The notes: a model not told the origin generated them from the letters alone. DNA of 53,503 bases from Chloroflexota bacterium (GCA_025935415.1 JAICVI010000002.1:1-53503), one strand, 5' to 3'. Counted from the first letter of the stretch, positions 5,481 through 52,667 are shown. Made by a program: numbers and translations.

Positions 5481-5541
5481 TACAAGTCGTCCAGTATCGT
5501 TACGGTGCTATGGTGCGTCCGTGAACATCGCCGTGCCGCCG

Positions 5542-9200: not shown

Positions 9201-9212
9201 GAGGTGGCGACC

Positions 9213-10730: not shown

Positions 10731-10837
10731 GTATCCGCCCGATCAGGCTCCGGCAAGCACGTCAGCATCGGCTCGCGCCGCGGCGAGCGCCTGCTCGAAG
10801 TCCTCCATCGCGGCCGATCCTACACCGGGCGGCAGGA

Positions 10838-23987: not shown

Positions 23988-24656
23988 TCAGCTCGCAGGC
24001 GGGCGCCCCTCGATCAACCCCTGGAGCACGGGCAGCATCCGCCGGACCGCGCGCCCGCGATGCGAGATGGCGTCCTTCTCCGCGGGCGCGTACTCGGCGA
24101 AGGTCCGGCCGCCGGCGCGCTCCCGCGCCGGCTCGAACAGCGGGTCGTAGCCGAACCCGCCATCTCCGCGAGGCTCGAAGCCGACGCGGCCGCGCGAGGT
24201 CCCGCGGCGCTCGATGATCCGCAGTCCGCCTGCGGCGGCCTCGTCCGGAAGCGCCAGCGCCAGCACGCAGACGTAGCGCGCGTCGCGCTTGCCTGCGGGC
24301 ACGTCGGCGAGCTCCCGCAGGAGCTTGGCGTTGTTCTCCTCGTCGGTGGCGTCCGGGCCGGCGTAGCGCCGGGTCCAGACGCCCGGCGCGCCTGCGAGTG
24401 CCTCGACCTCGATGCCCGAGTCGTCGGCAAGGGCCGGCAGCCCCGTCGCGCGGGCCGCGAAGCGGGCCTTGATCCGGGCGTTCGTCTCGAAGGTCAGGCC
24501 GTCCTCGACCGGCTCGCCCGGGACGCCCAGGTCGTCGAGGGAGACGAGCTTGAGGCCGTCGAGGAGGAGCATGTGGCGCAGCTCGCGCAGCTTGTGCGCG
24601 GAGCGCGTCGCGACGACGACCGTGGGGTTCGCGCGGGCGGCCGCCGCGGGCTTCAG
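23988..24656 (-). CDS. rdgB: Non-canonical purine NTP pyrophosphatase (RdgB/HAM1 family); start codon uncertain (possibly CTG)
   Basis: This is the C-terminal ~220 aa of track ORF 23988..25298: [14 protein letters not shown]...[10 protein letters not shown]...[24 protein letters not shown]...[12 protein letters not shown]...[14 protein letters not shown]. There is no ATG, GTG or TTG between the conserved N-terminus and the rph stop. Confidence 0.8.
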
Positions 24657-25390
24657 CGCCGGATTGAGGCGAGGGCCTGGCCCTGCGCCTCGAACAGACG
24701 CGCCAGTCCGCCGTCGGCGAGGTCCAGCAGCGTCGCGACCCTCGAGCGATCGAACGGGAGGCCCTCGGCCGTGCCCTGGAGCTCGATGTACGTCCCGGCG
24801 TCCGTGCCGACGACGTTCATGTCGACCTCGGCCGTGGAGTCCTCCGAGTAGTCGAGGTCGAGCATCGCGAGCCCGTGGATCACGCCGACCGACACGCCGG
24901 CGACCTTCCCGGTGAGGACGCGCTCGAGGCCGGCACCCATCAGCGCCGCGGCCAGGGCGACGTAGCCGCCCGTGATCGAGGCGCAGCGGGTGCCGCCGTC
25001 CGCCTGGAGCACGTCGCAGTCGATGGTGACCGTCTTCTCGCCGAGCTTGGTCATGTCGACGACACCACGAAGGGAGCGGCCGATCAGCCGCTGGATCTCG
25101 TGCGTCCGACCGCCGAGGCGGCCTTTCACGGCCTCCCGATCCGATCGCTCCGCGGTCGCTCGCGGGAGCATCGAGTACTCGGCGGTCACCCAGCCGCTGC
25201 CCTTGCCGCGGAGGTGCGGTGGGACGCGGTCGCCGATCGTGGCGGCGCAGAGCACCTCGGTGTCGCCCTGCCGGATCCGGCACGAGCCCTCGGCCCACTT
25301 CTGCACGCCCATCGTGATCGACACGGCACGCAGGTCGCCCGGCCGGCGACCGTCATTGCGGACCGACGGCGGCCGATTGCCCAGCGTCAT
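24653..25390 (-). CDS. rph: Ribonuclease PH
   Basis: The ATG at 25390 lies in track ORF 24653..26173. The sequence reads [41 protein letters not shown]...[17 protein letters not shown]...[19 protein letters not shown]...[18 protein letters not shown]. An ATGA overlap links it to mazG. Confidence 0.9.
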
Positions 25391-26580
25391 CGCGCCACCT
25401 CTGCTCGCTCTTCCACCTTGGCAGCATCCCACAGATCGTCGAGGGCCTCGAAATCGAGGTCCCGGATGGCCAGCCCACGCTGGGCGACCATACGCTCCAC
25501 GCGCCGGAAGCGGCCGCGGAACTTCTCGTTGGCGGCCCTGAGCGCACCCTCGGTCTCGATGCCCAGCTTGCGCCCGACGTTGACGACGACCAGCAGGAGG
25601 TCGCCGAACTCCTCCCGCCGCTCGGTGGCATCGCCCGCCCGGGCCAGCTCCTCCAGCTCCTCGGCAACCTTGTCGAGCACGCCGTCGACGTCCGGCCAGT
25701 CGTAGCCAAGGGCCGCCGCGCGCTCCTGCATCTCCTGGCTCGCCGCGAGCGCCGGCATGGAGCTGCTGATGCCGTCGAGCGCGCTGCGGGCGGGCGCCTC
25801 GGCCGTTGCCGCCTCGGCGCGCTCGTCGGCCTTGATCCGTTCCCACTGGCGATTGACGTCGGCGGCCGTCTTGGCGACGGCGTCCCCGAAGACGTGCGGG
25901 TGCCGCCGGACGATCTTCCGCGCGATCGAGGCCTGGACGTCCGCGAGGTCGAAGACGCCCTCCTCGGCGGCGAGCTGAGCGTGGAGGATGACCTGCAGGA
26001 GGAGGTCGCCGAGCTCCTCGGCGAGCGCCGGCGTCGCGCCATGCTGGAGCGCGTCGTAGACCTCGTAGGCCTCCTCGAGGAGGTGCTTGCGGAGCGACTC
26101 GTGCGTCTGCTCCCGGTCCCAGGGGCAGCCGTCGGGACGGCGGAGGCGGTCGCTGATGAACGGCATCGCCCACGGGCCGGCGGCGGCGAGCTCCGGCGCG
26201 AGCGGGGCGAGGTAGAGCGGCAGGGCGAGGTCCGCCGGGACGAGCGACCCGACGGTCGGCGCCCGCTCGTTGCCGCGTTCGGGGCTCGCCAGGAACGCGA
26301 CGGGGGCTGCCGCCGGGTAGAGCCGCCGGAGGAGCGAGATCGGGTCATGCCCCGAAGGCCCGTGGCGTCCCGGCAGCGGTCGCGCGCCCTCCGACGCGTC
26401 CGTGGCCGCATCCCGGCTCGGGCCGGACGCGGGCGCGAGCATCGCCAGTGGGACGACGAGCAGCGGCCGTGAGGCCTCGATCGGGGTCGCCGTCAGCCGC
26501 TCGGCCGCGACGACCTGGATCCCCGCGGCGACGTCCAGGCCGTGCTCGCGGACCGCCTGCTCGACCAGGGCGTCGAGCAT
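25387..26580 (-). CDS. mazG: MazG-family nucleoside triphosphate pyrophosphohydrolase (tandem MazG domains) with a ~140-aa N-terminal extension
   Basis: Track ORF of 397 aa: [27 protein letters not shown]...[14 protein letters not shown]...[10 protein letters not shown], followed by a second MazG repeat ([20 protein letters not shown]...[14 protein letters not shown]). Confidence 0.8.
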
Positions 26581-29612: not shown

Positions 29613-31037
29613 ATGCAGATTCACGCCCTCGTGCTGGCCGGCGGATCGGGCGACCGCTTCGCCGCGGAGATGCCCAAGCAGTTCGTCCGGCTCGCCGGCG
29701 AGCCGATCCTGCTCCGGAGCCTGCGAACCGTGGCCGGCGCCGGCATCGATCGGCTCGTCGTCGTCTCGCACCCGTCGTGGATCGCGGAGACACGCGAGAT
29801 CGTGGAGGGAGCGGAGCTCGGGGTGCCGACGGTGGTCGTGGCGGGCGGCGTCACCCGCAACGAGAGCACGCTTCGTGGACTGGCGGCCCTGGAGGCGGAC
29901 CCGGACGACATCGTGCTCGTGCACGACGCGGTGCGGCCCCTGGTCCCGACCGAGGTCATCCAGCGCTCCATCGAGCCGATCCTCTCGGGTCGCGCCGACG
30001 GGACGGACACCGTCATTCCCACGGCCGACACGCTGGTCGTGGTGGAGGGCGACCGGGTCGTGGAGATTCCGCAGCGAGCCCGCTACCGGCGTGGCCAGAC
30101 GCCCCAGACGTTCCGGATGTGGGTTCTGAAGGAGGCCTACGAGAAGGCCGCGGCAGCCGGTGACCTCACCGCGACCGACGACTGCAGCCTGGTCCTCCGC
30201 CACGTGCCCAACGTCCGCCTCGTGGCGGTCGCCGGCGACGAGGTCAACCTCAAGATCACGACGCGCACGGACCTCGTGCTCGCCGACCGGATGATCCAGA
30301 TGCGGACCCTCGAGACCGCGGATCCGGTGCCGACGCGCTCGCTCGAGGAAGCCCGCGTCTACGTCGTCGGAGGAACCGACGGGATCGGGCGGTCGATCGC
30401 GGACGCGGCGGGGGCCGCCGGGGCCCGGGTCGCCGTGGACGGCCGGCGATCCGGCCTCGACGTGCGCGATGCCGCGGGAATCGCGGCCCGCATGGACGCG
30501 GTCGCGGCGGCCTTCGGGGGGATCGATCACGTCATCTGCACGGCCGGGGTCATGCGGGTCGGGCCGTCCGCGGCGGCGAGCGCCGAGGAGCTGGCCGAGG
30601 TCATCGACGTCAACGTCACGGGAACGCTCTCGGTGGCGCGAGCCGCCTATCCCCATCTGCGGGCCTCGCAGGGGTCGTTCACCGTGTTCGCGTCGAGCTC
30701 GTTCAGCCGTGGGCGCGCGAACTACGTGGCCTACTCGGGCAGCAAGGCGGCAGTCGTCAACATCGCCCAGGGGCTCGCGGAGGAGTGGGCGCCCGATCGG
30801 ATCCGGGTGAACGCCGTGAGCCCGGAGCGAACCGACACCCCGATGCGTCGCTCGGCCTTCCCCGAGGAGTCGCGCGCCGGGATGCTGCAACCGGGCGAGG
30901 TCGCCGAGGCAACGCTGCGGCTGATCCGATCCGACCTCACCGGCCAGGTGCTGGACGTGCGGCGCCATGACAGCGCGCCGGTGGATCCGGGCCGGCCGGA
31001 AGCGGGGCGCGCCGAGCCGGCCCCGGAACGGCGGTGA
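29613..31037 (+). CDS. Bifunctional CDP-ribitol synthase-like protein: N-terminal IspD/TarI-type cytidylyltransferase fused to a C-terminal short-chain dehydrogenase (Bcs1/Acs1 architecture)
   Basis: The ATG at 29613 lies in track ORF 29562..31037. The N-terminal part reads ALVLAGGSGDRF....PKQFVRLAGEPIL...VLVHDAVRPLV...RGQTPQTF. The C-terminal part reads VVGGTDGIGRSIA...CTAGV...SSSFSRGRANYVAYSGSKAAV...NAVSPERTDTPM. Confidence 0.85.
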   Translation: MQIHALVLAGGSGDRFAAEMPKQFVRLAGEPILLRSLRTVAGAGIDRLVVVSHPSWIAETREIVEGAELGVPTVVVAGGVTRNESTLRGLAALEADPDDIVLVHDAVRPLVPTEVIQRSIEPILSGRADGTDTVIPTADTLVVVEGDRVVEIPQRARYRRGQTPQTFRMWVLKEAYEKAAAAGDLTATDDCSLVLRHVPNVRLVAVAGDEVNLKITTRTDLVLADRMIQMRTLETADPVPTRSLEEARVYVVGGTDGIGRSIADAAGAAGARVAVDGRRSGLDVRDAAGIAARMDAVAAAFGGIDHVICTAGVMRVGPSAAASAEELAEVIDVNVTGTLSVARAAYPHLRASQGSFTVFASSSFSRGRANYVAYSGSKAAVVNIAQGLAEEWAPDRIRVNAVSPERTDTPMRRSAFPEESRAGMLQPGEVAEATLRLIRSDLTGQVLDVRRHDSAPVDPGRPEAGRAEPAPERR

Positions 31038-32158
31038 CCCGGCTCGATTACCGGATCGCGTCGACGGTCCTGCGGCTGCTCGGCTGGCTGTTCGGGTTCC
31101 TCCCGGCGCGGCGGAACGTGGTGGTCCTGGCGTCGCCGAGGAAGCGGGCGCTCGACGGCAACCTCCTTGCCATACGCGACGAGATCCGGGCCCGCCGTCC
31201 CCGCGCCCGGATCGTGGAGCTGGCGGAGACCTACGGCTACGGCTTCCGCGGGAAGCTGCTCTACGCCCTCCGGATGGTCCGGGCGATGTACCACCTCCGG
31301 ACGGCCGGGCTGGTCGTCCTCGACAATGCCTGGCTGCCGGTCCATGTGGCGCCCCACCCGGCTCGGACCACGGTCGTGCAGGTCTGGCACGCCGTCGGGG
31401 CGCTGAAGCGCTTCGGCGTGGACACGGTCCCGCCGCCCCGCGAGCCCGAGCGCTCCTTCCTGCATCGTCACTACGACTGGGTCGTCGCGAGCGGCGAGGC
31501 CTCTCGCGGTCCCTGGGCGCGGGCGCTGCGAACGAACCCGGACCACGTGCTCGCGCTGGGCTCGCCGCGTACGGACGCGCTCCTCGACCCGGCCGCCCTC
31601 GCGGCCGAACGCGCGCGCATCGTGGCGCGCTACCCCGGGCTCGTGGGCCGCCGCGTGATCACGTACGCGCCCACGTTCCGAGGCCGCGGACGCGGGAAGG
31701 AGCCGGCGCGTGGGCTCGATGCGCCGCGCCTGCGAGCCGCTCTCCCAGCAGGCGACGTGCTCGTGCTCAAGAGCCATCCGAACCTGGACTTCGACCTCGT
31801 GGAGACCTCCGGTTTCGACGTCGTGGTGGACCCAGCGGAGGACATGAACGCCGTGCTCGCAGCGACCGACATCCTCGTGACCGACTACTCGTCCTCGATC
31901 TTCGAGTACGCCCTGCTGCGCCGGCCGCTGGTGTTGCTGGTGCCCGACCTGGAGGCCTACGAGCGCGAGCCGGGGATGTACCTCGACTACCGCCGGGAGA
32001 TGGTCGGCACGCAGGTGCGATCGACCGACGAGGTCGCCGCGGCGATCGCGGCGGACGCGTTCGACCTGTCGCCCTACGAGGCCTTCATCCGCCGCCACCT
32101 CGGCTCGCCGGACGGGCGCTCGAGCCGACGGTTCGTGGATCGATTTCTTCCCGGCTGA
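31034..32158 (+). CDS. Second TagF/TarL-family CDP-polyol phosphotransferase
   Basis: Track ORF of 374 aa with a GTGA start/stop overlap with the preceding gene. The sequence reads VQVWHAVGALKRFG...GSPRTDALL...ITYAPTFRG...VLVLKSHPNL...TDILVTDYSSSIFEYALLRRPLVLLVPDLEAYEREPGMYLDY. Confidence 0.85.
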   Translation: MTRLDYRIASTVLRLLGWLFGFLPARRNVVVLASPRKRALDGNLLAIRDEIRARRPRARIVELAETYGYGFRGKLLYALRMVRAMYHLRTAGLVVLDNAWLPVHVAPHPARTTVVQVWHAVGALKRFGVDTVPPPREPERSFLHRHYDWVVASGEASRGPWARALRTNPDHVLALGSPRTDALLDPAALAAERARIVARYPGLVGRRVITYAPTFRGRGRGKEPARGLDAPRLRAALPAGDVLVLKSHPNLDFDLVETSGFDVVVDPAEDMNAVLAATDILVTDYSSSIFEYALLRRPLVLLVPDLEAYEREPGMYLDYRREMVGTQVRSTDEVAAAIAADAFDLSPYEAFIRRHLGSPDGRSSRRFVDRFLPG

Positions 32159-33797
32159 TCGCCGCCATCACGGGCTCGGTGCCGTTCCCGGCATCGTGCT
32201 CGTCCGGCCCCGGCAGGCTGGCCAGCGTCTCGATCGTCGGCATCGAGCCGGCGAGGATGTCCGGCAAGAGCTCCGACCAGTTGTGCCCGCGGACACGGAT
32301 CCGCACGCGGTTCGCGCGCTGGATCGCCTGCCGGAGCAACGCCCGCTCGCGTGTCAGCAGCTCGTGGTTCGAGAGGCCGCCGATGACCAGCAGCGGCGCG
32401 AACGTCGCAAATGGCGGGAAGGTGTACGCATCCTCGGTGTTCTGGAGGAGCTCGTCGAGGGTGTGCTCCGGCGTCGGCTGCTCGACCAGCGGCTCGCCCC
32501 GTTCCATGAGCACGACGGCCCGAACGCGCGATCGATCGACGACGTCGCAATCGACCAGTGACGTCACGTGGTACTTCGGCGGCGGGATGAACAGCTGGAC
32601 CCAGGCGTTGAGGGTCACGATCGGGATCGGCAGGCGGCCGAGGGCATGCCCGACGGCGCGGCCCTCGCGGGAGTGCAGCTTCGAGCGCACCGCGAGCATC
32701 ATCCGATCGGCCCAGGGGAGAGCCTTGTCGCTGACCGCGTTCATCGTGTGCGACGACAGGGTCATGGGCTTGGGGTAGCCGAGGATCTCGCCGCCGGCGC
32801 CGAGGATCGCCATGTCGTCCGACAGGAATCCATAGTCGTGGTTCACGAGCAGCCGGAGCACGGTGCTGGTCTTGCCCGTGTCCGTCTTCGCCGACATGAC
32901 GAGGGCGCCGGCGTCGCCGTCGATGGCCGCGCAGTGGAGCAGCACGTAGCCACGAGCGACGAGCACGAACCGCAGCAGTGGCTCGACCATGTTCGTGTAG
33001 AGGACGTGGTGTGACCACAGCAGCAGCCAGTTGGCATCGAGCGTGATCGGCTCGCGGGACTCCGGCGGCTGCAGCCCGATGTCGAAGGCCGCGCTGAGCG
33101 CGCCCAGCTGCTCGCGGTACCGGATCGTCCGGCCGTCCCGCCACGTGGCGATCCGCAGCCTGGGCCAGCCCCCGAGCCAGCGCCGTCGGACGACGAGATC
33201 GGGCTCGTCCACCTCGCGGTCGACGTTGAATGCCGCGAGCTCCGGGAGGGCGACGGCCGAGCGGATCCGCAGCAGGCCGTGGATGTCGTACTGGAAGGCC
33301 CCGGCCACGGGCCGTTGCGCGCGCTGGTCACGTCCTGCCCAGATCCAGTTGTCGGCGATGAGGTAGCGGATGCCGAACGTCAGCCCGATCGCCACCAGGT
33401 TGGAGATCGTGTAGTGGAGCCCGGCGTGGTCGGTCAGGAAGTAGAGCACCGGGATGCGGATGAGCAGCGTCGCCATGTTGACGGCGTTGAAGATCAGGTA
33501 GCGGATGAGCACCTGGCCGCGGGCTTCCCGGGCTCGGAAGACCCAGAACTCGGTCAGCAGGAAGTTGCTGAGCGTGGAGACCTGCGAGGACAGGATCGAG
33601 GACACGATGTAGTAGACGCCGAGGACCTCGGTGAACAGGACCAGGGCGAGCTGGTTGACGACGATTCCGAGGATGCCGACGATCGCGAACTTCGAGGGCG
33701 ACGCCAGGACCCGCAGGGCTCGCCGGGCGATCCCGTGGCGGTGGCGCGGCTCGGCAGGCTGGTTCGGCTCGGCAGGAAGCTGCCGTTCCTCGGTCAT
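32085..33797 (-). CDS. Fusion protein: N-terminal GtrA-like 4-TM domain plus C-terminal HPr-kinase-like (HprK-related) P-loop domain
   Basis: Track ORF of 570 aa. Residues ~30-150 (FAIVGILGIVVNQLALVLFTEVLGVYYIVSSILSSQVSTLSNFLLTEFWVFR...ISNLVAIGLTFGIRYLIADNWIW) look like GtrA. Residues ~280-330 (GYVLLHCAAIDGDAGALVMSAKTDTGKTSTVLRLLVNHDYGFLSDDMAIL) match the LHA..v...G..ll.G.sG.GKST..l.L...G....sDD pattern of HprK C-terminal-like proteins. The last 74 nt overlap the convergent TagF-like gene. Confidence 0.7.
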   Translation of the reverse strand: MTEERQLPAEPNQPAEPRHRHGIARRALRVLASPSKFAIVGILGIVVNQLALVLFTEVLGVYYIVSSILSSQVSTLSNFLLTEFWVFRAREARGQVLIRYLIFNAVNMATLLIRIPVLYFLTDHAGLHYTISNLVAIGLTFGIRYLIADNWIWAGRDQRAQRPVAGAFQYDIHGLLRIRSAVALPELAAFNVDREVDEPDLVVRRRWLGGWPRLRIATWRDGRTIRYREQLGALSAAFDIGLQPPESREPITLDANWLLLWSHHVLYTNMVEPLLRFVLVARGYVLLHCAAIDGDAGALVMSAKTDTGKTSTVLRLLVNHDYGFLSDDMAILGAGGEILGYPKPMTLSSHTMNAVSDKALPWADRMMLAVRSKLHSREGRAVGHALGRLPIPIVTLNAWVQLFIPPPKYHVTSLVDCDVVDRSRVRAVVLMERGEPLVEQPTPEHTLDELLQNTEDAYTFPPFATFAPLLVIGGLSNHELLTRERALLRQAIQRANRVRIRVRGHNWSELLPDILAGSMPTIETLASLPGPDEHDAGNGTEPVMAAISREEIDPRTVGSSARPASRGGGG

Positions 33798-33829: not shown

Positions 33830-35986
33830 CTACGGAGCCGCGACCGACCGCAACCGTGCGAGGGCCGCGTCCGCGGCGTCGCCAGGGGGCACCACGATCA
33901 ATCGGTCGAGGAATGCGGTTGCGGCATCCCGGGAGCCATCCTCCGCCAGCATCCGGGCGAGAACGTCGACCGCCTCCGGCTGGGCGTACGTGACGTCCGG
34001 CCTGAACTCGAGCCCGGCGAGATCGAGCCAGAACGCCGACACCACGAGCTCTCCTGCCTTGAGCGGATAGGACCAGCGCATCGCGAGCCGTGCCCCTGCG
34101 GCGTTCTTCAGGGCCTCGGTCAAGGGCGTGGACTCGACGTCCGGCGCCAGGTACCCGGCCTCGATCCAGAGGACCGCACCGGCAACCCTGAGCTGCTTCA
34201 GCAGATGCTCGCTCGAATAGGTGTCCAGGCTGTCGACCTTGCGCAGCGCGGTCTCGAGCGTGAGCGGCGCGACGCCCGCGCTCTTCGACAGCCGGAGGCC
34301 CGTCGGGGTCGAAGGGTCGGCGATGGCTCGTTCTGGCAGGGCCCGCACCACCCTGAGGCTGCCGTGGACCTCCAGCGCCAGCTCATAGGCGAGCGCCGGC
34401 CCGATCGACACCGTCTGGCCCGGCGGGACGGTCGCGCGAAGCCAGGCACCGATCTCCGCGAGCGCGCGGTTGCGGTTCGCAATGCTGGCCTCGCCAGCTG
34501 ATCCCCTCGCCGCGGTCGCCGTTGCGATTGCCGCGGATGAAAGGAAGACCGCGGTCAGGACGAGCGTTCCCGCGAGACGTGGCCGGACGGCCGTGAGGCG
34601 GCGTTCGAAGCGCAGCCAGGTCCACCGCAGCAGGCCGAAGGCGATGAGCAGCGCGACGCCAGCGGCGAGCGCACGCGGCGCGTTCAGGGACACGTGCCTG
34701 GAGTGGAGCAGCTGTGCGCCGCCGGCGAGGACCACGATCCCGACGGCGCCCAGGAGGAGCCACCGGTCCGAGCCGGCGAACGCGCGTCTCGCCACTGCGA
34801 CGAAGCCGACGCCACCCAGCGCGGCGCCGAGGCACAAGGTCGCCAGGTAGTGGCGGGGTGTCTCGCCGATGCCCAGCACGAGGACGATGAGGGCGACCTG
34901 CGCGACGCCGGCGAACAGGAGCTGCCAGACCGGCTGGGAGCGCGCCGCGCGAAGGGCCAGGAGCGCCCCGACCACGCCGATCGCCACGATCATGCCGATC
35001 TGCGGCAGATACCTGCTCACATCCGCGACCAGCTGCGAGAGGCGGACGATGGAGGCGCCGCTGAGCTTCGGGGCGACGGCGTAGATCGCCAGCTGCCCCA
35101 GGAGCCAGACGCCCAGGCCGCCCCACGCGACCACGGCGCGGAGGACCCGACTCCTGCGACCGCTGAGCCGGGCGTCGAGTGCCTGGCCGAGTGCGCTCCT
35201 GGAGAGTCGAGGCAGCGCAAGGCCGACGATGACCACGACGACGACGGCCAGGCCGATCGGGACCAGGAGCCACGCAGGCCCACCGACGCGGTAGACCTGG
35301 CCTGTGAGCTGCGCGTAGAGGACGAACCACCACGCGCTGGTCACCGCGGCCGCGAGGAGCGCGGCGGCGGAGACGCGTCCGATCGTCCGCGCCGGAACCA
35401 TCCCGAGCAGCGCGGCGAGGAAGGGGACCGGGGCGAACGGGATGACGGTCTCCTTGATGAGGAAGCCCGCGCCGAAGAGCAGGCCCGCCAGGAGGCCGAG
35501 TCGAGCGGACCCCCGTTCGATCGCGACGACGGCGACCCACAGGTACGCGAGCACGAACGCCGTCGCCGGGAGATCGATCCCTGCACTCCGGGCCAGGTTC
35601 GCGAGGTACGGCGTCGCGAGAAGCGCGGCGGCCGTGACCCCGCCGGCGGCGGGACGGTACCGCCAGGCCAGCGCGGCCGCGAAGAGCATCGAGAGCGCGG
35701 CCGCGATCGCCTCGATCACGTGGCCCAGCGCGAACGGATCGAGCCCGAGCCAGGCTTTCGGGACGGCGAGCACCAGCGGCCAGACGGGCGCGTGATACAG
35801 GATCGGTGCGCCGAAGTCGGTGACGAGGCCCTTGCCGTCGAGGATGTTGAGCCCGAGGCCGACGTATTTGGCGTCATCCGGGGTCTGGAACGCCGGCCCC
35901 TGGATCGCGAAGAGGGCAAGGAACAGGGCCACGGAGGCACCGACGATGGCGAGGGCGATGCGCCGCTCGTCGAGGCGATCCGTCAC
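33830..35986 (-). CDS. GT-C-fold polyprenyl-phosphate-sugar-dependent glycosyltransferase (PMT_2/ArnT/YfhO-like) with a C-terminal extracytoplasmic domain
   Basis: Track ORF of 718 aa with a GTG start and about 12-14 TM segments. An acidic first-loop motif (QTPDDAKYVGLGLNILDGKG) is followed by a ~230-aa soluble C-terminal region. Confidence 0.7.
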   Translation of the reverse strand: MTDRLDERRIALAIVGASVALFLALFAIQGPAFQTPDDAKYVGLGLNILDGKGLVTDFGAPILYHAPVWPLVLAVPKAWLGLDPFALGHVIEAIAAALSMLFAAALAWRYRPAAGGVTAAALLATPYLANLARSAGIDLPATAFVLAYLWVAVVAIERGSARLGLLAGLLFGAGFLIKETVIPFAPVPFLAALLGMVPARTIGRVSAAALLAAAVTSAWWFVLYAQLTGQVYRVGGPAWLLVPIGLAVVVVVIVGLALPRLSRSALGQALDARLSGRRSRVLRAVVAWGGLGVWLLGQLAIYAVAPKLSGASIVRLSQLVADVSRYLPQIGMIVAIGVVGALLALRAARSQPVWQLLFAGVAQVALIVLVLGIGETPRHYLATLCLGAALGGVGFVAVARRAFAGSDRWLLLGAVGIVVLAGGAQLLHSRHVSLNAPRALAAGVALLIAFGLLRWTWLRFERRLTAVRPRLAGTLVLTAVFLSSAAIATATAARGSAGEASIANRNRALAEIGAWLRATVPPGQTVSIGPALAYELALEVHGSLRVVRALPERAIADPSTPTGLRLSKSAGVAPLTLETALRKVDSLDTYSSEHLLKQLRVAGAVLWIEAGYLAPDVESTPLTEALKNAAGARLAMRWSYPLKAGELVVSAFWLDLAGLEFRPDVTYAQPEAVDVLARMLAEDGSRDAATAFLDRLIVVPPGDAADAALARLRSVAAP

Positions 35987-37519: not shown

Positions 37520-39439
37520 TCAGTCACGGCGCGGCGCGATGCGGCGGAGGCCATGGCGGAGCACACGTCTCGCGGCGGGAACGAGGCCGCCGGTCCGGGG
37601 TGGCCGGCGCAGGTCGATGGTCGGACCGGCGCGCGCCTGGCGTCGCTCGGACGGCGCACCATCCCAGATCCGCCCGGAGAGCTCGCGGGCGATGTCGTGA
37701 TAGACGCGGCGGCTGTAGTGGCGAATCGAGTTCGTGAAGTCATCGCGGCCGTGGAGCAGCGGATCGACCGCGATGACACGGGCGTTGGGGAACTCGGCGG
37801 CGACCCGCGTGATCAGCTCGTTGTGGTGGCGGTGGGTCGCCTCGCGTTCGGCGTCGAGGCCGAAGGCCTCGGTGGCCCCGAGCAGGATCGTCAGGGCGCT
37901 CCCCGGCGAGACCAGGGCGAACAGCCGGCGGAGCTGGTTCCGCCAGACCTCGTCCGGTTTCTCGACCGGGTGCCAGCGCTGGGCGAACGCCCGGAGCGCA
38001 TGCGGGTCGAGGTCGTAGCGCGCTGCGAGGGCCGCGATCCGGGCGGCGTCGATCTCCGGCTGCTCCACGTCCCCGAACGACAGATAGACGCCGCGGTGAT
38101 CGTCGCTGGCGTACTTCGCCTGGACATAGTCGATGAGCGGGCTGTAGACGACCTCGTCGTACGAGCTCCAGTCCGGCGGCCGGAGCGCGTCGGCATCGAG
38201 GAACGGGGCCTCGGCGAGCAGCGCCGTTCGGGTCGCTTCGGGCAGCCCAGCGGCGAGGAGGTAGTCGATGCTGTCGCGGTGGACGATGAGTCGCGGCCTG
38301 TCCGCAGGGCTGTAGTTGAAATGCGTGACGACGGCCTCCGGCCGGTCGAGGAACGGCAACGCGGACTCGAGGTCGCAGCCCCCGACGAACAGGATCCGGC
38401 GCGCTTCGGATCCGGCGCGCTCACCGCTCGGCTGGGTGGCTGATGGCAGTCGGGGCGCGCCTTCGTCGGCCGGCGTCTCGATGAGCTGCAGCCAGTCGAT
38501 CGGCTCGCCATCGAGCGGCGCGCTCACGGGCTCCGCAATGGAGATCGAGGGCCGGCCCAGCCAGTCGTAGACGGCGCGCTCGACGCCCATCCCCAGGATC
38601 CGGCAGGAGAACGCGAGCTGCTCGACCCGGCCGTCGGTGACGGCGGCGAACCCGACGAGGCCATGATCCCCAAAGCGGTCCCGGACCCGTACGGCGACCG
38701 CCCGGGTGTGGGGATCACGCAGGAGGCGGCCCACCCCGTCGCGGTCGAGGCGCTGCTTCGTGTAGTTGAGCTGGTTGGTTCGGGCGACGAGCTCGGCGAG
38801 GCGATCCTCGTCGGCGAGCGGCCGCGCCGTCAGCCGGACCTCGATGTTCGACGCGCGAAGGAACGCCCGGTTGTCCGAGAACGCCGCGGAGGCGGCGCTT
38901 CGCGCCTCGAGGAGCCGGTACTCGGCCAGGCGCCGGCGCGTGGGATCGGCCTTGCCGGAGGCCGCGATCGCCGCCATCCGCGCCTGGAACGCAGGGTCGG
39001 CCGGGTCCGCGAGCTGGAGCCCGGGAGCGAAGAAGGCCGCTTCCTCGCGGTTGAGGTGGTTGTCGTCGACGAAGAGCACGTTGGGCGGGCGGAGCTGCGC
39101 GGCCGCGATGAGGTCGCGGACCTGCGCGCCCTTGGCCTCCCAGTTGATGCGCGCGAAGACGACGAGCTCCCAGAGGCCCTGCCGCTCCAGCTCCGCACGT
39201 GCGCCCTCGTGATCGTTGCGCGAGCTCACCGAGTTCATGACGCCGTGATCGACGAGGTCGCGGAGCAGCGCTGCCCGACCCTCGATCATCCGGACGGGCC
39301 CCTCGGAGAGCACGCCCGACCAGAGCGTCTCGTCCAGGTCCCAGATCACGAGCTTCACCTGCTCCGTGGCGACGCCCTCCGCGGCGCCCTCAGCGGCGTC
39401 CTGCGCGATGTCCTCGCGGATGCTCGTCATCGGGCGCAC
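37520..39439 (-). CDS. FkbH-like HAD-superfamily (subfamily IIIC) protein with a GNAT-like middle domain and an extra ~300-aa C-terminal domain
   Basis: Track ORF of 639 aa (GTG at 39439 or ATG at 39430). HAD motif I reads KLVIWDLDETLW and a later motif reads NVLFVDDNHLN. The FkbH-type middle region is LVARTNQLNYTKQR...GDHGLVGFAAV...LAFSCRILGMGVE. The C-terminal part (ILFVGGCDLE...HRDSIDYL...) is unassigned. Confidence 0.7.
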   Translation of the reverse strand: MRPMTSIREDIAQDAAEGAAEGVATEQVKLVIWDLDETLWSGVLSEGPVRMIEGRAALLRDLVDHGVMNSVSSRNDHEGARAELERQGLWELVVFARINWEAKGAQVRDLIAAAQLRPPNVLFVDDNHLNREEAAFFAPGLQLADPADPAFQARMAAIAASGKADPTRRRLAEYRLLEARSAASAAFSDNRAFLRASNIEVRLTARPLADEDRLAELVARTNQLNYTKQRLDRDGVGRLLRDPHTRAVAVRVRDRFGDHGLVGFAAVTDGRVEQLAFSCRILGMGVERAVYDWLGRPSISIAEPVSAPLDGEPIDWLQLIETPADEGAPRLPSATQPSGERAGSEARRILFVGGCDLESALPFLDRPEAVVTHFNYSPADRPRLIVHRDSIDYLLAAGLPEATRTALLAEAPFLDADALRPPDWSSYDEVVYSPLIDYVQAKYASDDHRGVYLSFGDVEQPEIDAARIAALAARYDLDPHALRAFAQRWHPVEKPDEVWRNQLRRLFALVSPGSALTILLGATEAFGLDAEREATHRHHNELITRVAAEFPNARVIAVDPLLHGRDDFTNSIRHYSRRVYHDIARELSGRIWDGAPSERRQARAGPTIDLRRPPRTGGLVPAARRVLRHGLRRIAPRRD

Positions 39440-43127: not shown

Positions 43128-44393
43128 TCAGGCCGCTCCCGGGCCGACGAACCTCCGACGCGGTCGACGGCGGCGCCGCAGCAACGTCTGCGGGAACCGC
43201 AGCGTGAGCAGCAGCGAAGCGATGACCGTGGCCGGGACGCCGGCGACCCGCCCGCCGCCGGGCCGCGCGAGGATCGCGGTCGCGGCCCGCACCAGGCTCG
43301 GGGTTCGCAGCCACGCCGGGATCGAGGGATGCTCGCGGACAAGGCGCGCCAGGAAAGCCAGGTACGCCGAGCGGACGGATGCCGGCGCGCCGACCCAGTA
43401 GTCGAGCGGGTCCAGGACGAGCCCCTCGGTGACCGCCGGCGAGCGCTCGACCAGCCCTTCCGGCGCGGAGGCGATGAATGCCCCGACCGCATCGAACAGG
43501 TCCTCGGCCCCCTCGTCGGCGCGGGCCAGCGCCCGCGCCATCGGGCCCTCGAGGTCCGAGCGAACGAGCCGCTCGAAGTACGCCCCCACGACACGCTCGC
43601 GATCCCCGGGATCGGCGAGCTGCGCCTGCGCCTCGGCCGCCACGTCGGCGAGGGCGCCGATCGCGACACGCGCCGCTTCTGCGGCGACCCGTGCCGAGCC
43701 GCGCTTGGCCGCGGTGATCGTGCCGTCGCTCTCCACCATCGGACGGCGCCACTCGTAGACATCCTCGGCGATCACCTCGATGGCGTCGCCGGCTCGAAGG
43801 AGCGCACGGACCGTCCACGGTTGGTCGCCCAGCACACGGCCGCTGAAGCGCAGGCCCTGGAACGTCGACGCGTGAAAGAGCTTGCCGGTGGCCGATGCGT
43901 AGAAGAGCAGCCCGGGGCGGCCGGCGAGCGACGTTCGGCCAGGCCGGCGAATGTCGGGAATGTCGTAGGCCGGCGTCCGCCAGCGCCGCCGGCCGTCCGA
44001 CCACACGCGTTGGCCGACGACCACCCGAACGTCGGGCTGCCTGCTCGCCTCGCTGAGGGCCCGGAGACCGCCCGGCAGCAGGACGTCGTCGGCGTCGAGG
44101 TAGGTCAGCCACTCGCCGCGGATCGCGTCGAGCCCCAGGTTGCGCGCGCTCGACACACCGGCGTTGGCCTCGGACCGCACGAGGACGATGCGCGGATCGC
44201 TCGCGGCCCGGGCCACGACCGTCGCCGCGGTGTCGTCGGTCGAGCCATCGTCGACCACGACGCACTCGACGTCCGCGACGCCCTCATCGAGGACGGAATC
44301 GAGCGCTCGCCCGATCGACCGACCCGCGTTCCATGCCGGAATCAGGACCGAGACGGCCGGCCGAGCGGAGGGGGTTGCGATGCTACCCTTCAG
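43128..44393 (-). CDS. GT2-family (GT-A fold) glycosyltransferase; no canonical start codon upstream of its conserved N-terminus (candidate CTG at 44393)
   Basis: Track ORF 43128..44258 begins at VVDDGSTDDT. The frame stays open to an in-frame TGA at 44417..44415 and encodes the expected PAVSVLIPAWNAGRSIGRALDSVLDEGVADVECVVVDDGS. That stretch has only CTG, ATC or ATT as possible starts. The CTG at 44393 lies 7 nt after GGAG. A DxD motif (YLDADD) is present. Confidence 0.65.
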   Translation of the reverse strand: MKGSIATPSARPAVSVLIPAWNAGRSIGRALDSVLDEGVADVECVVVDDGSTDDTAATVVARAASDPRIVLVRSEANAGVSSARNLGLDAIRGEWLTYLDADDVLLPGGLRALSEASRQPDVRVVVGQRVWSDGRRRWRTPAYDIPDIRRPGRTSLAGRPGLLFYASATGKLFHASTFQGLRFSGRVLGDQPWTVRALLRAGDAIEVIAEDVYEWRRPMVESDGTITAAKRGSARVAAEAARVAIGALADVAAEAQAQLADPGDRERVVGAYFERLVRSDLEGPMARALARADEGAEDLFDAVGAFIASAPEGLVERSPAVTEGLVLDPLDYWVGAPASVRSAYLAFLARLVREHPSIPAWLRTPSLVRAATAILARPGGGRVAGVPATVIASLLLTLRFPQTLLRRRRRPRRRFVGPGAA

Positions 44394-47023: not shown

Positions 47024-48244
47024 GTGGCGCAGTCGGCACCTACACGCAAGCTTCCACTTCGGCGCGGGCTGATCACCCTGATCGCCGTGGCGATCGCTGC
47101 CCTCGCGATCGTCGTCTCCGCACGACTGGGGACGCTCACGCCGGGCGGCGCGGCAGCGGCCTCGCACCCGCCGGGCCCGTCCACCGCGGAGTCCCTGGAG
47201 CCGGCGATGAGCCTCGCGCCGACGGCGACGCCCCTGGTATCGCCTTCGCCCACCCCGATCCCCCTCGTGCCGGCACCGCTGACGGGCCGACTCGTCACCA
47301 AGGCCGAGGCCCAGCGGCATCCGATCGCGGTCATGGTCGACGACAGCATCGACGCCCGGCCGCAGGCGGGCTTCAACGCCGCCTCGGTCGTCTGGCAGGC
47401 CCCGGCCGAGGGCGGCGTGCCGCGCTACATGCTCATCTTCCAGGACCAGATCCCGACGTCCGTCGGGCCGATCCGGAGCGCGTGCCAGTACTACATCGAA
47501 TGGGCGTCGGAGCTGAAGGCGATGTACGTCCACCACGGCGGGTCGCCGCAGGCCAAGGAGACGCTCGCCGCCAAGGGCAACGGGACCTGGGTCTACAACG
47601 CCGACGGCTTCCGCTGGGAGGGCCGCTACGTCTTCCGGGTGAAGGATCGCTTCCCGCCGCACAACGTCATGACCGACGGCGGCCACCTCCGCAAGCTCGC
47701 CACGAAGATCGGCGCCGACGACGGGCCGATCAAGCCGATGTGGTCGTTCGCGCCCGACGCGCCGCTGGAGGACCGGCCCACGGGCGGGTCGATCAAGGTC
47801 ATCTACCCGTACGAGCCGATCGAGTATCGCTACGACCGGCTGACCAACACCTACATCCGCTACGTCAACGGCTCGAAGAAGCCCCAGGTCGACATCGCCG
47901 ACGGCAAGGTCGTGGCGCCGAAGAACGTCGTCATCCTGCGGATGTTCTTCGGGCCACTGACCGACGCGCATCCGGAGAAGAAGCGGCTCGAGGCGGCCGA
48001 CGTCGGTCACGGCCAGGCCTGGATCGCCACCAACGGCGTCACGGTCAAGGGCACGTGGCGCAAGGCCTCACCGACGGCGCCGACGTTGCTGTTCGGCCCG
48101 GATGGCGAGCCCATCACACTGACCGTCGGGCAGACGTTCGTGCAGGTGCTCGCCCTCGGCTACGACTACTCGATCAAGAACGGATCACTGCCGGCGGCGT
48201 CCCCGAGCGTGAACCCCGGCGCCTCGGCGAGCCTCGCGCCCTAG
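47024..48244 (+). CDS. DUF3048-domain secreted/membrane-anchored protein (YerB-like)
   Basis: Track ORF of 406 aa with an N-terminal TM segment (GLITLIAVAIAALAIVV) and a Pro-rich linker. This is followed by PLTG...PIAVMVDDSIDARPQAGFNAASVVWQAPAEGGVPRYMLIF, which matches my memory of DUF3048. Confidence 0.65.
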   Translation: MAQSAPTRKLPLRRGLITLIAVAIAALAIVVSARLGTLTPGGAAAASHPPGPSTAESLEPAMSLAPTATPLVSPSPTPIPLVPAPLTGRLVTKAEAQRHPIAVMVDDSIDARPQAGFNAASVVWQAPAEGGVPRYMLIFQDQIPTSVGPIRSACQYYIEWASELKAMYVHHGGSPQAKETLAAKGNGTWVYNADGFRWEGRYVFRVKDRFPPHNVMTDGGHLRKLATKIGADDGPIKPMWSFAPDAPLEDRPTGGSIKVIYPYEPIEYRYDRLTNTYIRYVNGSKKPQVDIADGKVVAPKNVVILRMFFGPLTDAHPEKKRLEAADVGHGQAWIATNGVTVKGTWRKASPTAPTLLFGPDGEPITLTVGQTFVQVLALGYDYSIKNGSLPAASPSVNPGASASLAP

Positions 48245-49005
48245 CGGCGCCGGAGCCGGCGCGAGCGGAGCTCCTCCCAGCGAAGGCGCAGCACCACGAG
48301 CAAGGCCTCGAGGATGATCTTCCGGGACATCTTCGACTGCCCCACGACGCGGTCGCGGAAGGTGATCGGCACCTCGGCGATGCGCGCGCCGGCGCGGCTG
48401 GCGCGGTACGTCATCTCGATCTGGAAGACGTAGCCGCCGGCGTGGATGCCGTCGAACGAGATCGCGCCGAGCGTCGCGGCACGCCAGGCCTTGAACCCGC
48501 CGGTGAGGTCATGCGGCGTGAGTCCCAGCACGGTCCTGGCGAAGAGGCTCCCGCCTCGTGACACGATCCTGCGCCCGACCCCCCAGTCGAGCACCTTGCC
48601 GCCCTTCGTGTAGCGGCTCCCGATGACGAGGTCCGCGCGGCCCTCCAGGATCGGCGCCAGGAGCGATGGCAGCGCTGCCGGGTCGTGGGAGCCGTCCGCA
48701 TCCATCTGGATCAGCGACGTCGCGCCGCCGTCGAGCGCGGTCCTGAAGCCGTCGAGATAGGCGCGCCCGAGCCCGGCCTTCGCGGGCCGGTGCTTGACGC
48801 GCACGCGAGGGTTCTCCGCGGCCATCCGGTCGGCGATGTCACCGGTCCCATCGGGCGAGCCGTCGTCGACGACGAGGAGGGTGGAGCCGGGCACGGCGGC
48901 GAGAATCGCCTCGGCAATGCCGGGCAGGTTCTCCGCCTCGTTGTAGGTCGGCAGGACGATCCAGGTGCCGGTCCCGGGTGTGGAGGGCGAAGGCGCGGTC
49001 GTCAT
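48241..49005 (-). CDS. Polyprenyl-phosphate sugar synthase (Ppm1/DPM1/GtrB/CsbB-like GT2)
   Basis: The ATG at 49005 lies in track ORF 48241..50535; only the last 254 aa are credible. The sequence reads WIVLPTYNEAENL...LLVVDDGSPDGTGDIA...LIQMDADGSHDP...DLVIGSRY...DLTGGFKAW. Confidence 0.85.
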   Translation of the reverse strand: MTTAPSPSTPGTGTWIVLPTYNEAENLPGIAEAILAAVPGSTLLVVDDGSPDGTGDIADRMAAENPRVRVKHRPAKAGLGRAYLDGFRTALDGGATSLIQMDADGSHDPAALPSLLAPILEGRADLVIGSRYTKGGKVLDWGVGRRIVSRGGSLFARTVLGLTPHDLTGGFKAWRAATLGAISFDGIHAGGYVFQIEMTYRASRAGARIAEVPITFRDRVVGQSKMSRKIILEALLVVLRLRWEELRSRRLRRR

Positions 49006-49058
49006 CGTGCCGGGAGTGTAGAGGCGCGGGAGGCGCGGCCCGCCGCCGTACGGCGCCG

Positions 49059-52000: not shown

Positions 52001-52667
52001 CCCAGTACGGCAGGAACCCGAAGACCTCACGCCGCAGGCCGCTCGCGCCGACGGCGGCGGTGGTCTCGACGCCGCCTGATGTCGCGCCGCCGGCGGTCGC
52101 ACCGTCGGTTGCGAGCCTGTCCAGCGCGGTAGCCGGATCCGCCACCGCGTCGAGAGGCGCGATCGGCTGGTCGACGGTCTCGTCAAGTCCGTCCACACGC
52201 CCGGATGCGTCGCCGCTCTGGCCCGGCGCTCCGGCGGCCCACGTCGAGTCCTGTGGCGAGTCGCGCATCTGCCGGCCCGTTGCGTGACCGGGCGGGAGCG
52301 CTCGCGGTGTCTCGTCGTCGACGGTCCAGGTGTCGGCGGCGCTTGGCGAGAACGGCACGCTGACGCGACCACCGGGCTCGAAGGCGATGACGTCCCTCGC
52401 GTGCTCCTCGGCGGACAGCCACTGGACCGAGGCGAGGTCCTCCGTGACGCCGCCGCGGTCGAGGCTGCCATCGAGCCCGTCAGATGGCCCGGCGGCCGCG
52501 ACGGGAACGACGGGACCGTCGCCCGAAATCCCTTCCGTGAGCCGGGTGGACGCGGCCACGGGCCCGGGGGCGGCGAGTGGGGCCGCGGTCGCGACGAGGA
52601 GGACGAGCCCGAGGGCTGCCCGCAGACGAGCGAGCCTTGCGGCGACGGCTGTGCTGTGCAGTCTCAA
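49059..52667 (-). CDS. Large secreted multidomain protein (1202 aa): GH18 chitinase-like/YaaH-like domain, FN3 repeats, SH3b-like and FlgD-Ig-like domains, and a C-terminal beta-sandwich module
   Basis: Track ORF. The signal peptide reads LRAALGLVLLVATAAPLAAPGPVAAS. GH18 features are FGFLPYWE..., DGVNLDFEP, FVMGYDY and GVPYYGR. FN3-like units contain GYDVEMS.DGG.W and RDYDVRRSVDGGAW...GHEYRFEVRARDRAGNVG. The SH3b-like stretch reads LRLRSSASTGASVMATLDRGDALRV. Confidence 0.8.
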   Translation of the reverse strand: MRLHSTAVAARLARLRAALGLVLLVATAAPLAAPGPVAASTRLTEGISGDGPVVPVAAAGPSDGLDGSLDRGGVTEDLASVQWLSAEEHARDVIAFEPGGRVSVPFSPSAADTWTVDDETPRALPPGHATGRQMRDSPQDSTWAAGAPGQSGDASGRVDGLDETVDQPIAPLDAVADPATALDRLATDGATAGGATSGGVETTAAVGASGLRREVFGFLPYWEMTDRSTTLDWRTLSTVAYFSVGCNANGSLAKRNPDGSATTGWAGWTSSKMTSIIDAAHAHHTRVVLTVSCFAWSSSGARVQAAILRSSTARATLAKQLAAAIRDRGADGVNLDFEPIVAGYADEFTALVRKVRAELNIVARGYQLTFDAMASIGNQPIAAATAPGGADAVFVMGYDYRTAGSATAGSISPLTGPTYDLTDTIEAFTAKVSPSKIILGVPYYGRAWSTATSSVHAATLSQAKYGASAVPLYSQAVEFAAAHGRHWDAVEQAPWTVYRKQTCTSAYGCVSSWRQLYYDDATSLKRRYDLVNREQLRGVGIWALGFDGAHPELRNALAEKFLQDTTPPVVGIETLPQTQRDEGFRVGWRGWDDSAIVGYDVEMSADGGAWHRWYTSTRATSGIYPGHDGHTYAFRVRAKDAHGNVSGWSGAGSVASIGIPSAIRAGGFATVLTDGLRLRSSASTGASVMATLDRGDALRVTGGPVERNGYTWFEVTGPIAQWSPVDPPQVGGWVAAFGNGVKNAAPRRPTYATQVKAGITGLRLNLGGQRVLTPRDPAHDTIHVTWRNQIELDSLALQVFRLDGTLVGSVRLNGTSKASHAYNWNGRVGGSLLPAGAYVLQLKGQRGSAVYTAPSASPVTTAQIAKAGAIVGPAVPTSVKSFTTTPASPTQSGDLVYRLVFGGAIKGLSAADLSRTGTAAGCHVAAPTGSGTTWFIRVTGCGPGSLQLSLRARSVSDAVANVGPPATVAASRVVIDRSGPIAAKPRVALRSGGGLATASAGASLGATLTWSASDVGGAGIRDYDVRRSVDGGAWADLAIDTTSRSMVVALTPGHEYRFEVRARDRAGNVGGWAVGSTIPVLLRQNESTAIDYSGTWKLVAASGYSGGTVRYATAAGATARYSFSGRSVALVLSRRPDGGKVKVYLDGSYVTTINTAAASTAYRQVMFAHSWPSAGTHSLRLVVVGGTTGHARIDLDAIALLR

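Follow-up and report, generated by a model that had tools for sequence, protein, structure and literature searches.

The stretch of DNA analyzed here, 53,503 nt from a Chloroflexota bacterium (GCA_025935415.1 JAICVI010000002.1:1-53503; hereafter the window), encodes at 32085..33797 on the minus strand a single 570-aa protein in which a four-helix GtrA/DPMS-type transmembrane domain runs into a soluble, predicted phosphotransferase domain, which we call X. The open reading frame (ORF) starts with ATG, and its GC content by codon position (GC3 0.92, GC2 0.45) shows the pattern of a real gene in a window of 71% GC. An earlier sequence-only reading of this DNA had claimed one 570-aa ORF here, and both the ORF and every peptide string quoted from it could be recovered in the translation. 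The gene is made up of the following parts, given with the evidence that defines them.

32085..33797, minus strand: the whole gene, GtrA/DPMS transmembrane domain plus PEPCK/HprK-like domain X, 570 aa (ORF, coding signature, homologs).
33693..33797, minus strand: N-terminal tail, predicted cytoplasmic, aa 1-35, Arg/His-rich with 6 Lys+Arg, weakly conserved (positive-inside count, low predicted local distance difference test score (pLDDT), variable in alignment A1).
33339..33692, minus strand: four-helix GtrA/DPMS transmembrane domain, aa 36-153 (Pfam, alignment with 5mlz, Foldseek, AlphaFold2 (AF2) model).
33306..33338, minus strand: basic linker after the fourth transmembrane helix, AGRDQRAQRPV, 3 Lys+Arg (alignment A1, Lys+Arg count).
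32253..33305, minus strand: domain X, aa 165-515, two-lobed P-loop phosphotransferase of the PEPCK/HprK superfamily, predicted cytoplasmic (AF2, Foldseek, NCBIfam, hhalign).
33033..33305, minus strand: N-terminal beta-rich lobe of X, aa 165-255, with invariant Y170, S180 and E186 (secondary structure, PEPCK alignments, conservation).
32991..33014, minus strand: S-H-H-V-L-Y-T-N motif, aa 262-269 (conservation, alignment register).
32934..32936, minus strand: His288 of LLHCAA, corresponding to the His of the HprK 'LHG' motif and to PckA His232 (alignments, conservation).
32868..32891, minus strand: Walker A motif, A303-K-T-D-T-G-K-T310, with Lys309/Thr310 corresponding to PckA K254/T255 (alignments, conservation).
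32814..32819, minus strand: Asp327-Asp328 of FLSDDM, corresponding to the HprK 'ADD' motif and to PckA D268-D269 (alignments, conservation).
32568..32585, minus strand: P-P-P-K-Y-H motif, aa 405-410, opposite PckA 'SYPIYH' just past R333 (hhalign, conservation).
32088..32252, minus strand: C-terminal tail, aa 516-570, disordered and non-conserved (pLDDT <50, variable in alignment A1).

The fusion of the two domains is not a sequencing artefact, because 582 full-length homologs with 58-90% identity keep the architecture unchanged and because GtrA is followed immediately by X in all 54 of 54 non-redundant species-representative genome loci. The close relatives, nearly all of them Chloroflexota of the Limnocylindria group, never carry the fusion as two separate genes, an arrangement that the sequence-only reading had named as counting against its own claim. 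The window itself most probably derives from this group. Alignment A1, which contains 30 of the 582 homologs, has a mean column identity of 61% and includes dozens of invariant polar residues between aa 155 and 515, and G155-R156-D157 of the linker is invariant among close relatives. At its 3′ end the gene overlaps a convergent TagF-like gene (31034-32158, plus strand) by 74 nt (32085-32158, stop codon included), and the overlapped part is the disordered, non-conserved tail.

Pfam assigned the membrane domain to PF04138 GtrA_DPMS_TM (aa 36-153, E 1.3e-21, 77.4 bits vs a cut-off of 26.1, model positions 1-117), in agreement with a GtrA domain forecast at about aa 30-150. Residues 36-154 align with residues 258-373 of the P. 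furiosus DPMS (5mlz; E 1.7e-12), the sole PDB sequence match of the protein, and in a Foldseek search with the full-length AF2 model (pLDDT 78; helices at aa 33-58, 63-86, 96-124 and 129-159) the membrane domain matched the DPMS structures 5mlz and 9ep0. Lys+Arg residues number 6 in the N-terminal tail, 0 in loop 1-2, 4 in loop 2-3, 0 in loop 3-4 and 3 after the fourth helix, a distribution that by the positive-inside rule predicts an N-in/C-in topology with both termini and X in the cytoplasm. Because aa 36-154 match DPMS 258-373 and a family 2 glycosyltransferase (GT2) encoded elsewhere in the window matches DPMS 27-251, the membrane part probably represents the transmembrane half of a polyprenyl-phosphate glycosyltransferase of the DPMS type, a better reading than that of a free GtrA ‘flippase’. 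Membership in the GtrA family thus stands, but the protein is no canonical, free-standing GtrA of approximately 120-150 aa, being 570 aa long with an extra domain of approximately 360 aa.

Structural comparison of X gave the same ranking in two models. In the full-length model, X matched ATP-PEPCK first and HprK/P next. In a domain-only AF2 model built on 26 divergent sequences (pLDDT 87, predicted TM-score (pTM) 0.85), the best 34 PDB matches were all ATP-PEPCK at E <= 1e-3 (lowest E 1.8e-6), aligned over approximately 420 columns with TM-scores up to 0.48, followed by HprK/P structures at E of about 5e-3, the remainder being noise; no ABC, RecA or AAA+ match was found for X in these Foldseek searches. 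The PEPCK structural alignments also cover the N-lobe of X, whereas the HprK ones do not, and judged from these models X as a whole fold is closer to ATP-PEPCK than to HprK.

Sequence profiles returned a weak signal of the HprK type. NCBIfam matched the target to HprK-related kinase A (TIGR04352) at aa 281-355 (E 1.3e-6, 27.8 bits vs a cut-off of 200), to HprK-related kinase B (TIGR04355; 11.4 bits vs 200) and to ScmC (TIGR04249 / PF27840; 11.8 bits vs 125), and Pfam found no family on the X of the target, neither Hpr_kinase_C (PF07475) nor PEPCK_ATP (PF01293). Among the 26 divergent X domains, HprK_rel_A was matched by 21, ScmC by 11, HprK_rel_B by 10 and true HprK by 3, all far under the cut-offs, and weak precomputed PF27840 ‘ScmC’ matches are present in many relatives of the target. 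A profile of these 26 domains found nothing relevant among PDB sequences, and one more HprK-like member (P0130) was the only single member to reach HprK/P by sequence in the PDB. The sequence-only reading had placed an HprK-like soluble domain at about aa 270-430 and had allowed that a profile search might show no such match or a different P-loop family; the HprK-type signal proved reproducible and lies within the forecast interval, but stays below every curated cut-off.

When an X profile was aligned to E. coli PckA with hhalign (E 1.5e-4), the alignment covered PckA residues 218-349, a region that spans H232, the P-loop, D268-D269, K288 and ‘YPIYH’, and paired ‘LLHC...SAKTDTGKTST...FLSDDM...YPKPMTLS...PPPKYH’ with PckA ‘SMHCSANV...GLSGTGKTTLS...LIGDDEHGW...CYAKTIKLS...SYPIYH’. 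A phmmer alignment of the X of a relative with S. xylosus HprK/P likewise paired ‘LLHAACISVNGTGVLVTAKTDTGKTSTILRVLSHNHGQFLSDDMTI’ with the HprK/P catalytic stretch. These pairings place His288, Lys309/Thr310 and Asp327-Asp328 at the positions of the catalytic/metal-binding His, the P-loop Lys/Thr and the acidic pair, and the arrangement His-x14-P-loop-x16-DD resembles the catalytic core of HprK. The P-loop itself, A-K-T-D-T-G-K-T, fits the classical [AG]-x4-G-K-[ST] pattern and has a family-specific, invariant Asp306 at a position where the S-G-x-G-K-[ST] loop of HprK and PEPCK carries Gly, so that the Walker A motif, described as atypical by the sequence-only reading, is unusual for this Asp but satisfies the classical pattern. 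Ungapped extension of the hhalign alignment would put S-H-H-V-L-Y-T-N opposite the Y207-K213 active-site loop of PEPCK, and in that register PEPCK Y207, K212 and K213 would find no identical counterparts in X.

Residue conservation was counted across approximately 360 X family members with identity down to approximately 31%, and the catalytic-core residues are kept in 98-100% of them. This holds for H288 (359/364), for the Walker A residues A303 (359/366), D306 (360/366), G308 (359/365), K309 (358/366) and T310 (359/366), and for the acidic pair, D327 and D328 (369/372 each). The two further motifs are constrained as well, with S262 in 352/353, H264 in 347/353, Y267 in 354/357 and N269 in 353/357 members for SHHVLYTN, and P406 in 354/359, P407 in 356/359 and K408 in 353/358 for PPPKYH; other conserved polar positions are K343 (375/376), R380 (367/367), Q401 (357/358) and the near-invariant H375. 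X thus combines a P-loop, His and acidic pair at equivalent positions with a match in fold, the features by which the PEPCK/HprK superfamily is recognized. Because all HprK, ScmC and PEPCK family thresholds fail while the superfamily core aligns, sequence and model together indicate that X is a separate family inside this superfamily and not an HprK, and we infer that it is an enzymatically active phosphotransferase.

A profile search with X collected >2,600 proteins, spread over Chloroflexota (Limnocylindria, Anaerolineales and Kouleothrix), Actinomycetota (Jatrophihabitans) and Archaea (Bathyarchaeia), and an exhaustive search with X alone gave 888 cluster representatives, 136 of them at E < 1e-30; tblastn against a plasmid collection found no member. 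Pfam analysis of the larger proteins identified the architectures GtrA-X, GT2-GtrA-X and GtrA-X-PMT_2, and the longest fusion is a single 1,310-aa GT2-GtrA-X-PMT_2 protein. In a census of 150 representatives with custom hidden Markov models (HMMs), X was alone in 76 (many of which are fragments), and occurred as GtrA-X in 30, GT2-GtrA-X in 26 and GT2-X in 11; five representatives carried a GT-C glycosyltransferase, including three GtrA-X-GT-C and one GT2-GtrA-X-GT-C, and X-GT-C fusions were seen in P0121, P0134 and P0166. Stand-alone soluble X proteins also exist, for example in locus L062 and on a Bathyarchaeia contig. The GtrA-X fusion that the sequence-only reading saw within a glycopolymer island is thus widespread, along with its GT2 and GT-C fusions, and is not island-specific.

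Neighboring genes were counted only at loci with enough flanking DNA. In 59 further metagenome loci of a distant subfamily (39-50% identity), X is preceded by GtrA at 46/46 loci and by a DPMS-like GT2 at 26/27, and is followed by GT-C at 25/34 and by a PF04185-like phosphoesterase gene at 14/21. Typical gene orders are GT2-GtrA-X, PMT, PF04185 phosphoesterase, Big-like protein and GH99/71 in Kouleothrix; GT2-GtrA, X alone, PMT_2 and phosphoesterase in L062; GtrA-X, PMT and phosphoesterase in L065; and GT2, GtrA-X, PMT_2 and phosphoesterase in L066, with X then PMT on the Bathyarchaeia contig as the minimal pair. Signal peptides are present on the phosphoesterase as well as on the Big-like and GH99/71-like proteins. 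In the target subfamily, 21 of 46 evaluable genome loci have a GT-C within 1.5 kb upstream, in 20 cases on the same strand, and 7 of 44 have one downstream; altogether a GT-C is adjacent in about 28 of 46 genome loci, and it was found upstream in seven of the eight evaluable metagenome loci. These GT-C counts come from a broad HMM; tblastn with the window GT-C and a narrower HMM had missed Pfam-confirmed PMT_2 genes in L003, and Pfam on the heuristic ‘-1/+1’ gene calls, which are noisy, found PMT_2 in only 17/44. Genes downstream in this subfamily (PALP in 10/48, and others) resemble lineage synteny and were set aside as partners. At the loci examined the context was always glycosylation, and genes of the phosphotransferase system (PTS) or of gluconeogenesis were never found around X.

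Several of these loci have features of their own. In L003 and L004 (about 0.7-16.5 kb), the target ortholog follows two tandem PMT_2 genes inside a sulfation cluster with three to four sulfotransferases, APS kinase, ATP sulfurylase, a sulfatase and a beta-helix protein. In L002, the region a few kb downstream of the ortholog (11.9-17.7 kb) contains HamA and a DEAD/Helicase_C protein, resembling Hachiman defense, together with another helicase. A Limnocylindrales metagenome-assembled genome (L053) carries, right after a GT2-then-GtrA-X pair, an ORF of at least 2,598 aa that runs off the contig end (8963-16758, plus strand). In L061, a stand-alone X has a gene of the NAGPA family (phosphodiester glycosidase, the ‘uncovering enzyme’ family; 4293-5534, plus strand) approximately 1.5 kb upstream, which is another neighbor related to phosphate esters, and the gene immediately after X encodes an 898-aa protein whose only match, a faint one, is to Metallophos.

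Within the window, two genes are candidate partners of the target.

33830..35986, minus strand: PMT_2-type GT-C, 718 aa, probable operon partner (Pfam PMT_2 E 9e-11; 32 nt upstream of the target on the same strand).
48241..49017, minus strand: DPMS/Ppm1-type GT2 without transmembrane helices, 258 aa, candidate catalytic partner (phmmer against 5mlz; orthologs in L066 and L053).

The first is the GT-C neighbor that the sequence-only reading had claimed, and no promoter-like or terminator-like site was found between it and the target. The second is an internal-ATG gene within a mechanically called 764-aa ORF. It matches residues 27-251 of 5mlz (phmmer E 7e-31), and the alignment stops where the transmembrane domain of DPMS starts, the domain that the target matches. 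Its best NCBIfam matches are the polyprenyl-phosphate glycosyltransferases AglJ, PpgS and Dol-P hexose transferase, all under cut-off. This GT2 is 56% identical (E 5e-77) to the GT2 directly before GtrA-X in L066, and a 69%-identical ortholog lies directly upstream of a GtrA-X paralog in the Limnocylindrales locus L053. In the window the GtrA module adjoins the GT-C and the GT2 is distant, so that the linkage of GT2 and target, including the docking of one on the other, is inferred from adjacency in L053, in L066 and at 26/27 distant loci; by this reasoning a DPMS-type enzyme is probably divided between two genes of the window, its transmembrane half carrying X. Another GT2, at 43128-44258 (minus strand), was rejected as the partner; it resembles the generic polymer GT2s TuaG and EpsD, not polyprenyl-phosphate glycosyltransferases. 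The coding sequence for the complete N-terminus of that protein (…VSVLIPAWNAGRSIG…) lies in frame before the first ATG/GTG/TTG and can be followed back as far as a stop near 44385, which points to a non-canonical start or a sequencing error.

The surrounding island contains two TagF/TarL-like genes, a TarI/TarJ-like cytidylyltransferase-reductase, ABC-2 exporters, GT4 and GT2 genes, a UDP-sugar dehydrogenase and an FkbH-like protein, and from this gene content looks like a teichoic-acid-type glycopolymer locus. Such a setting fits the use of GT2/GtcA/GT-C systems, which decorate teichoic acids (PMC7389260, PMC8035078). Also within the island, 37520-39439 (minus strand) encodes a 639-aa protein that scores 144.2 bits against the FkbH / HAD-IIIC cut-off of 146.65 and has no Pfam match. 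A 1,202-aa GH18-SH3-fn3-CBM6 protein (49059-52667, minus strand) ends 41 nt before the DPMS-type GT2 on the same strand. Elsewhere in the window, two house-cleaning NTP pyrophosphatase genes are adjacent at 23988-26580 (minus strand), one a 436-aa ORF with a Ham1-family domain at aa 227-422 and the other a MazG-domain protein of 397 aa, and the GC-richest stretch (GC 0.76) coincides with a mechanical ORF of 1,065 aa (7815-11012, plus strand; GC1 0.89) without a Pfam match, whose Arg/Gly/Ala/Glu/Asp-rich translation looks like an antisense artefact.

We propose, and would give the proposal an even chance of being right, that a split DPMS-type polyprenyl-phosphate-sugar synthase supplies the adjacent PMT-type GT-C, and that the target forms the membrane subunit of this synthase and carries X as an extra phosphotransferase. 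The four-helix domain would hold the polyprenyl-phosphate carrier at the cytoplasmic face and presumably dock the separately encoded GT2 (48241-49017), and X, beginning about ten residues past the fourth helix, would transfer a phosphoryl group using ATP (or pyrophosphate, as HprK/P can) to or from a hydroxyl or phosphate of a lipid-linked species on the transmembrane platform. X may convert polyprenol to polyprenyl phosphate and so prime or recycle the carrier, or it may phosphorylate the sugar of the polyprenyl-phosphate-sugar prior to export; that its substrate is lipid-linked in one of these two ways is the reading we consider likeliest, with about an even chance of being true. A lipid-linked substrate is argued for by the tethering of X approximately 10 residues from the last helix of a domain that in DPMS binds dolichyl phosphate, by fusions and gene orders that match the order of the pathway, by the exported phosphoesterase that is the next gene in the larger subfamily, and by a whole-domain fold that is that of a small-molecule kinase. 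The recurrence of this phosphoesterase after GT-C hints that the exported product or a by-product bears a phosphate ester, and favors a pathway step over pure regulation.

In a narrower form of the proposal, which we find rather unlikely, X represents a new kinase family acting on carrier lipids, its members being PEPCK/HprK-fold phosphotransferases for polyprenol or polyprenyl phosphate, and drives a recycling shuttle with ATP. GT-C would transfer the sugar outside the membrane, the signal-peptide PF04185 phosphoesterase of the distant subfamily would strip the released carrier there, the neutral polyprenol would flip back across the membrane, and X would re-phosphorylate it with ATP on the DPMS transmembrane platform and pass it to the GT2, a cycle that would replace a polyprenyl-phosphate flippase.

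A number of points weigh against a lipid-directed phosphotransferase partnered by the window GT2. One would expect a carrier kinase to act for every polyprenyl-dependent pathway and not for this module alone, and we know of no GT-C enzyme that transfers a phosphosugar. The GT2 lies 14.5 kb from the target, an adjacent GT2 was found in 0/9 loci of the target subfamily and a same-strand downstream phosphoesterase in 0/5 evaluable metagenome loci, and the only PF04185-like matches in this subfamily, in L013 and L072, are on the opposite strand. The similarity of X to PEPCK is moderate (TM-score 0.43-0.48, root mean square deviation 7-9 Å, identity 10-15%). Classical DPMS-to-PMT pathways (Ppm1/Pmt of Mycobacterium and Streptomyces) run, as far as is known, without an X-like domain, which makes X an add-on and is also compatible with a regulatory role. 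Finally, the characterized HprK-type enzymes (HprK/P and the lasso-peptide kinases) all act on protein or peptide serine and none on a lipid or sugar (PMC8498205).

The last point speaks for an explanation in which X is a regulatory protein-serine kinase/phosphorylase, an HprK/P-like sensor of ATP, inorganic phosphate or a metabolite that switches the GT2 or the GT-C. The nearest sequence relatives of X are HprK-type kinases, X is in cis with its presumed target in GT2-GtrA-X proteins, and its dispensability in classical DPMS/PMT systems is what one expects of a regulator; eukaryotic DPM synthase activity, too, is reportedly raised by Ser phosphorylation. The whole fold, however, has an additional N-lobe and, where PEPCK has its substrate site, a conserved loop, which brings it nearer to the small-molecule enzyme PEPCK than to HprK, and the tight conservation, the pathway-ordered fusions of GT2, transmembrane domain, X and GT-C, and the archaeal pairs of X and PMT resemble a pathway enzyme. 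Cytoplasmic regulation would also leave the linked exported phosphoesterase unexplained. We regard a regulatory kinase as improbable, though as the chief rival of our proposal.

Alternatively, X could be an ATPase that energizes the flipping of polyprenyl-phosphate sugars through the GtrA-like domain, making the protein an ATP-driven flippase. Here a P-loop domain is fused directly to a member of the GtrA family, a widely proposed flippase, X is predicted to be cytoplasmic, and it stands between the modules for synthesis (GT2) and use (GT-C). Yet the fold is of the PEPCK/HprK kinase class and not that of a motor ATPase, with no ABC, RecA or AAA+ match; the conserved His and Asp-Asp are phosphotransfer residues; X also occurs as a soluble stand-alone protein; and the transmembrane domain matches the lipid-binding domain of DPMS, which has no established transport role. 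We therefore consider a flippase very unlikely. A catalytically dead X, in a protein that only anchors the soluble GT2 and whose P-loop is a relic or a mere nucleotide binder, is slightly less probable still. Soluble DPMS catalytic subunits do need membrane partners (DPM1 with DPM2/3, Ppm1 with Ppm2), and the split arrangement is present in the window, but the Walker A Lys/Thr, the Asp-Asp, the His and about 20 further polar residues are near-absolute in approximately 360 sequences, which is not expected of a relic, and X is kept even where GT2 and transmembrane domain already share one chain and no anchor is needed. The reading of X as a true HPr kinase/phosphorylase or PEP carboxykinase misplaced by fusion, to which its weak HMM and fold matches to both families might point, is effectively refuted by the failed family thresholds (no Pfam match; NCBIfam 12-28 bits vs cut-offs of 125-200) and by a context of glycosylation, never PTS or gluconeogenesis, to which a structural-alignment identity of 10-15% and the probable mismatch at Y207, K212 and K213 can be added.

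Bacteria, archaea and eukaryotes share polyprenyl-phosphate glycosylation, a scheme in three parts, from DPMS/GtrB through flipping to GT-C/PMT, that is considered well understood. X appears as a strongly conserved, kinase-type fourth part, evidently kept by strong selection and fused to the synthase, its transmembrane domain or the GT-C, in thousands of sequences. If it is a carrier kinase, it bears on the priming and recycling of carrier lipids; as a kinase of lipid-linked sugars it would imply phosphorylated lipid-linked donors of a new class, along with phosphoglycan decorations; and as a regulator it would be, among prokaryotes, the first kinase switch to form part of a DPM synthase. As a soluble domain of approximately 360 aa with defined predicted catalytic residues, it can be tested directly. 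The parts are of known kinds, namely the GtrA/DPMS transmembrane domain, the PEPCK/HprK superfamily and three-component GT2/GtrA/GT-C glycosylation. X matched no dedicated Pfam or NCBIfam family and no solved structure of it was found, and in our literature searches we found no paper that joins GtrA-type and HprK-type modules or describes X. As far as these searches reached, the sequence-only reading was right that no characterized protein couples the two modules, and a conserved kinase-type fourth component of such systems has, as far as we could find, not been described before.

Comparison with known systems places X between several of them. ATP-PEPCK (E. coli PckA and others) is its best whole-domain structural match, but identity is 11-15%, X is about 150 residues shorter, the residues with which PEPCK binds oxaloacetate/PEP are probably not kept and there is no Pfam PEPCK match. 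[quoted passage not shown] If X phosphorylates the carrier, it would do the same job as DgkA-type undecaprenol kinase or dolichol kinase, whereas it has no sequence or fold relationship with DgkA or Sec59-type kinases, and the linked exported phosphoesterases would parallel the UshA/UpsH hydrolases (PMC11898649) in releasing or trimming carrier-linked species. The P. furiosus DPMS (5mlz, 9ep0) is resembled piece by piece, the target corresponding to its transmembrane domain (258-373) and the window GT2 to its catalytic domain (27-251), and many X relatives carry GT2 and transmembrane domain on one chain, as it does; in the window, by contrast, the enzyme is probably split over two genes, and its transmembrane half carries a domain of approximately 360 aa found in no solved or, as far as we found, described DPMS. 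The GtrB/CsbB, GtrA/GtcA and GtrC/YfhO systems likewise combine a synthase, a GtrA module with four transmembrane helices and a GT-C, and act in a teichoic-acid setting that the teichoic-acid-like island of the window recalls (PMC7389260, PMC8035078). Unlike in these systems, the GtrA of the target is not a free small protein, the GT-C of the window is of the PMT/PMT_2 type, and the module adds a conserved kinase-like fourth part, fused or adjacent.

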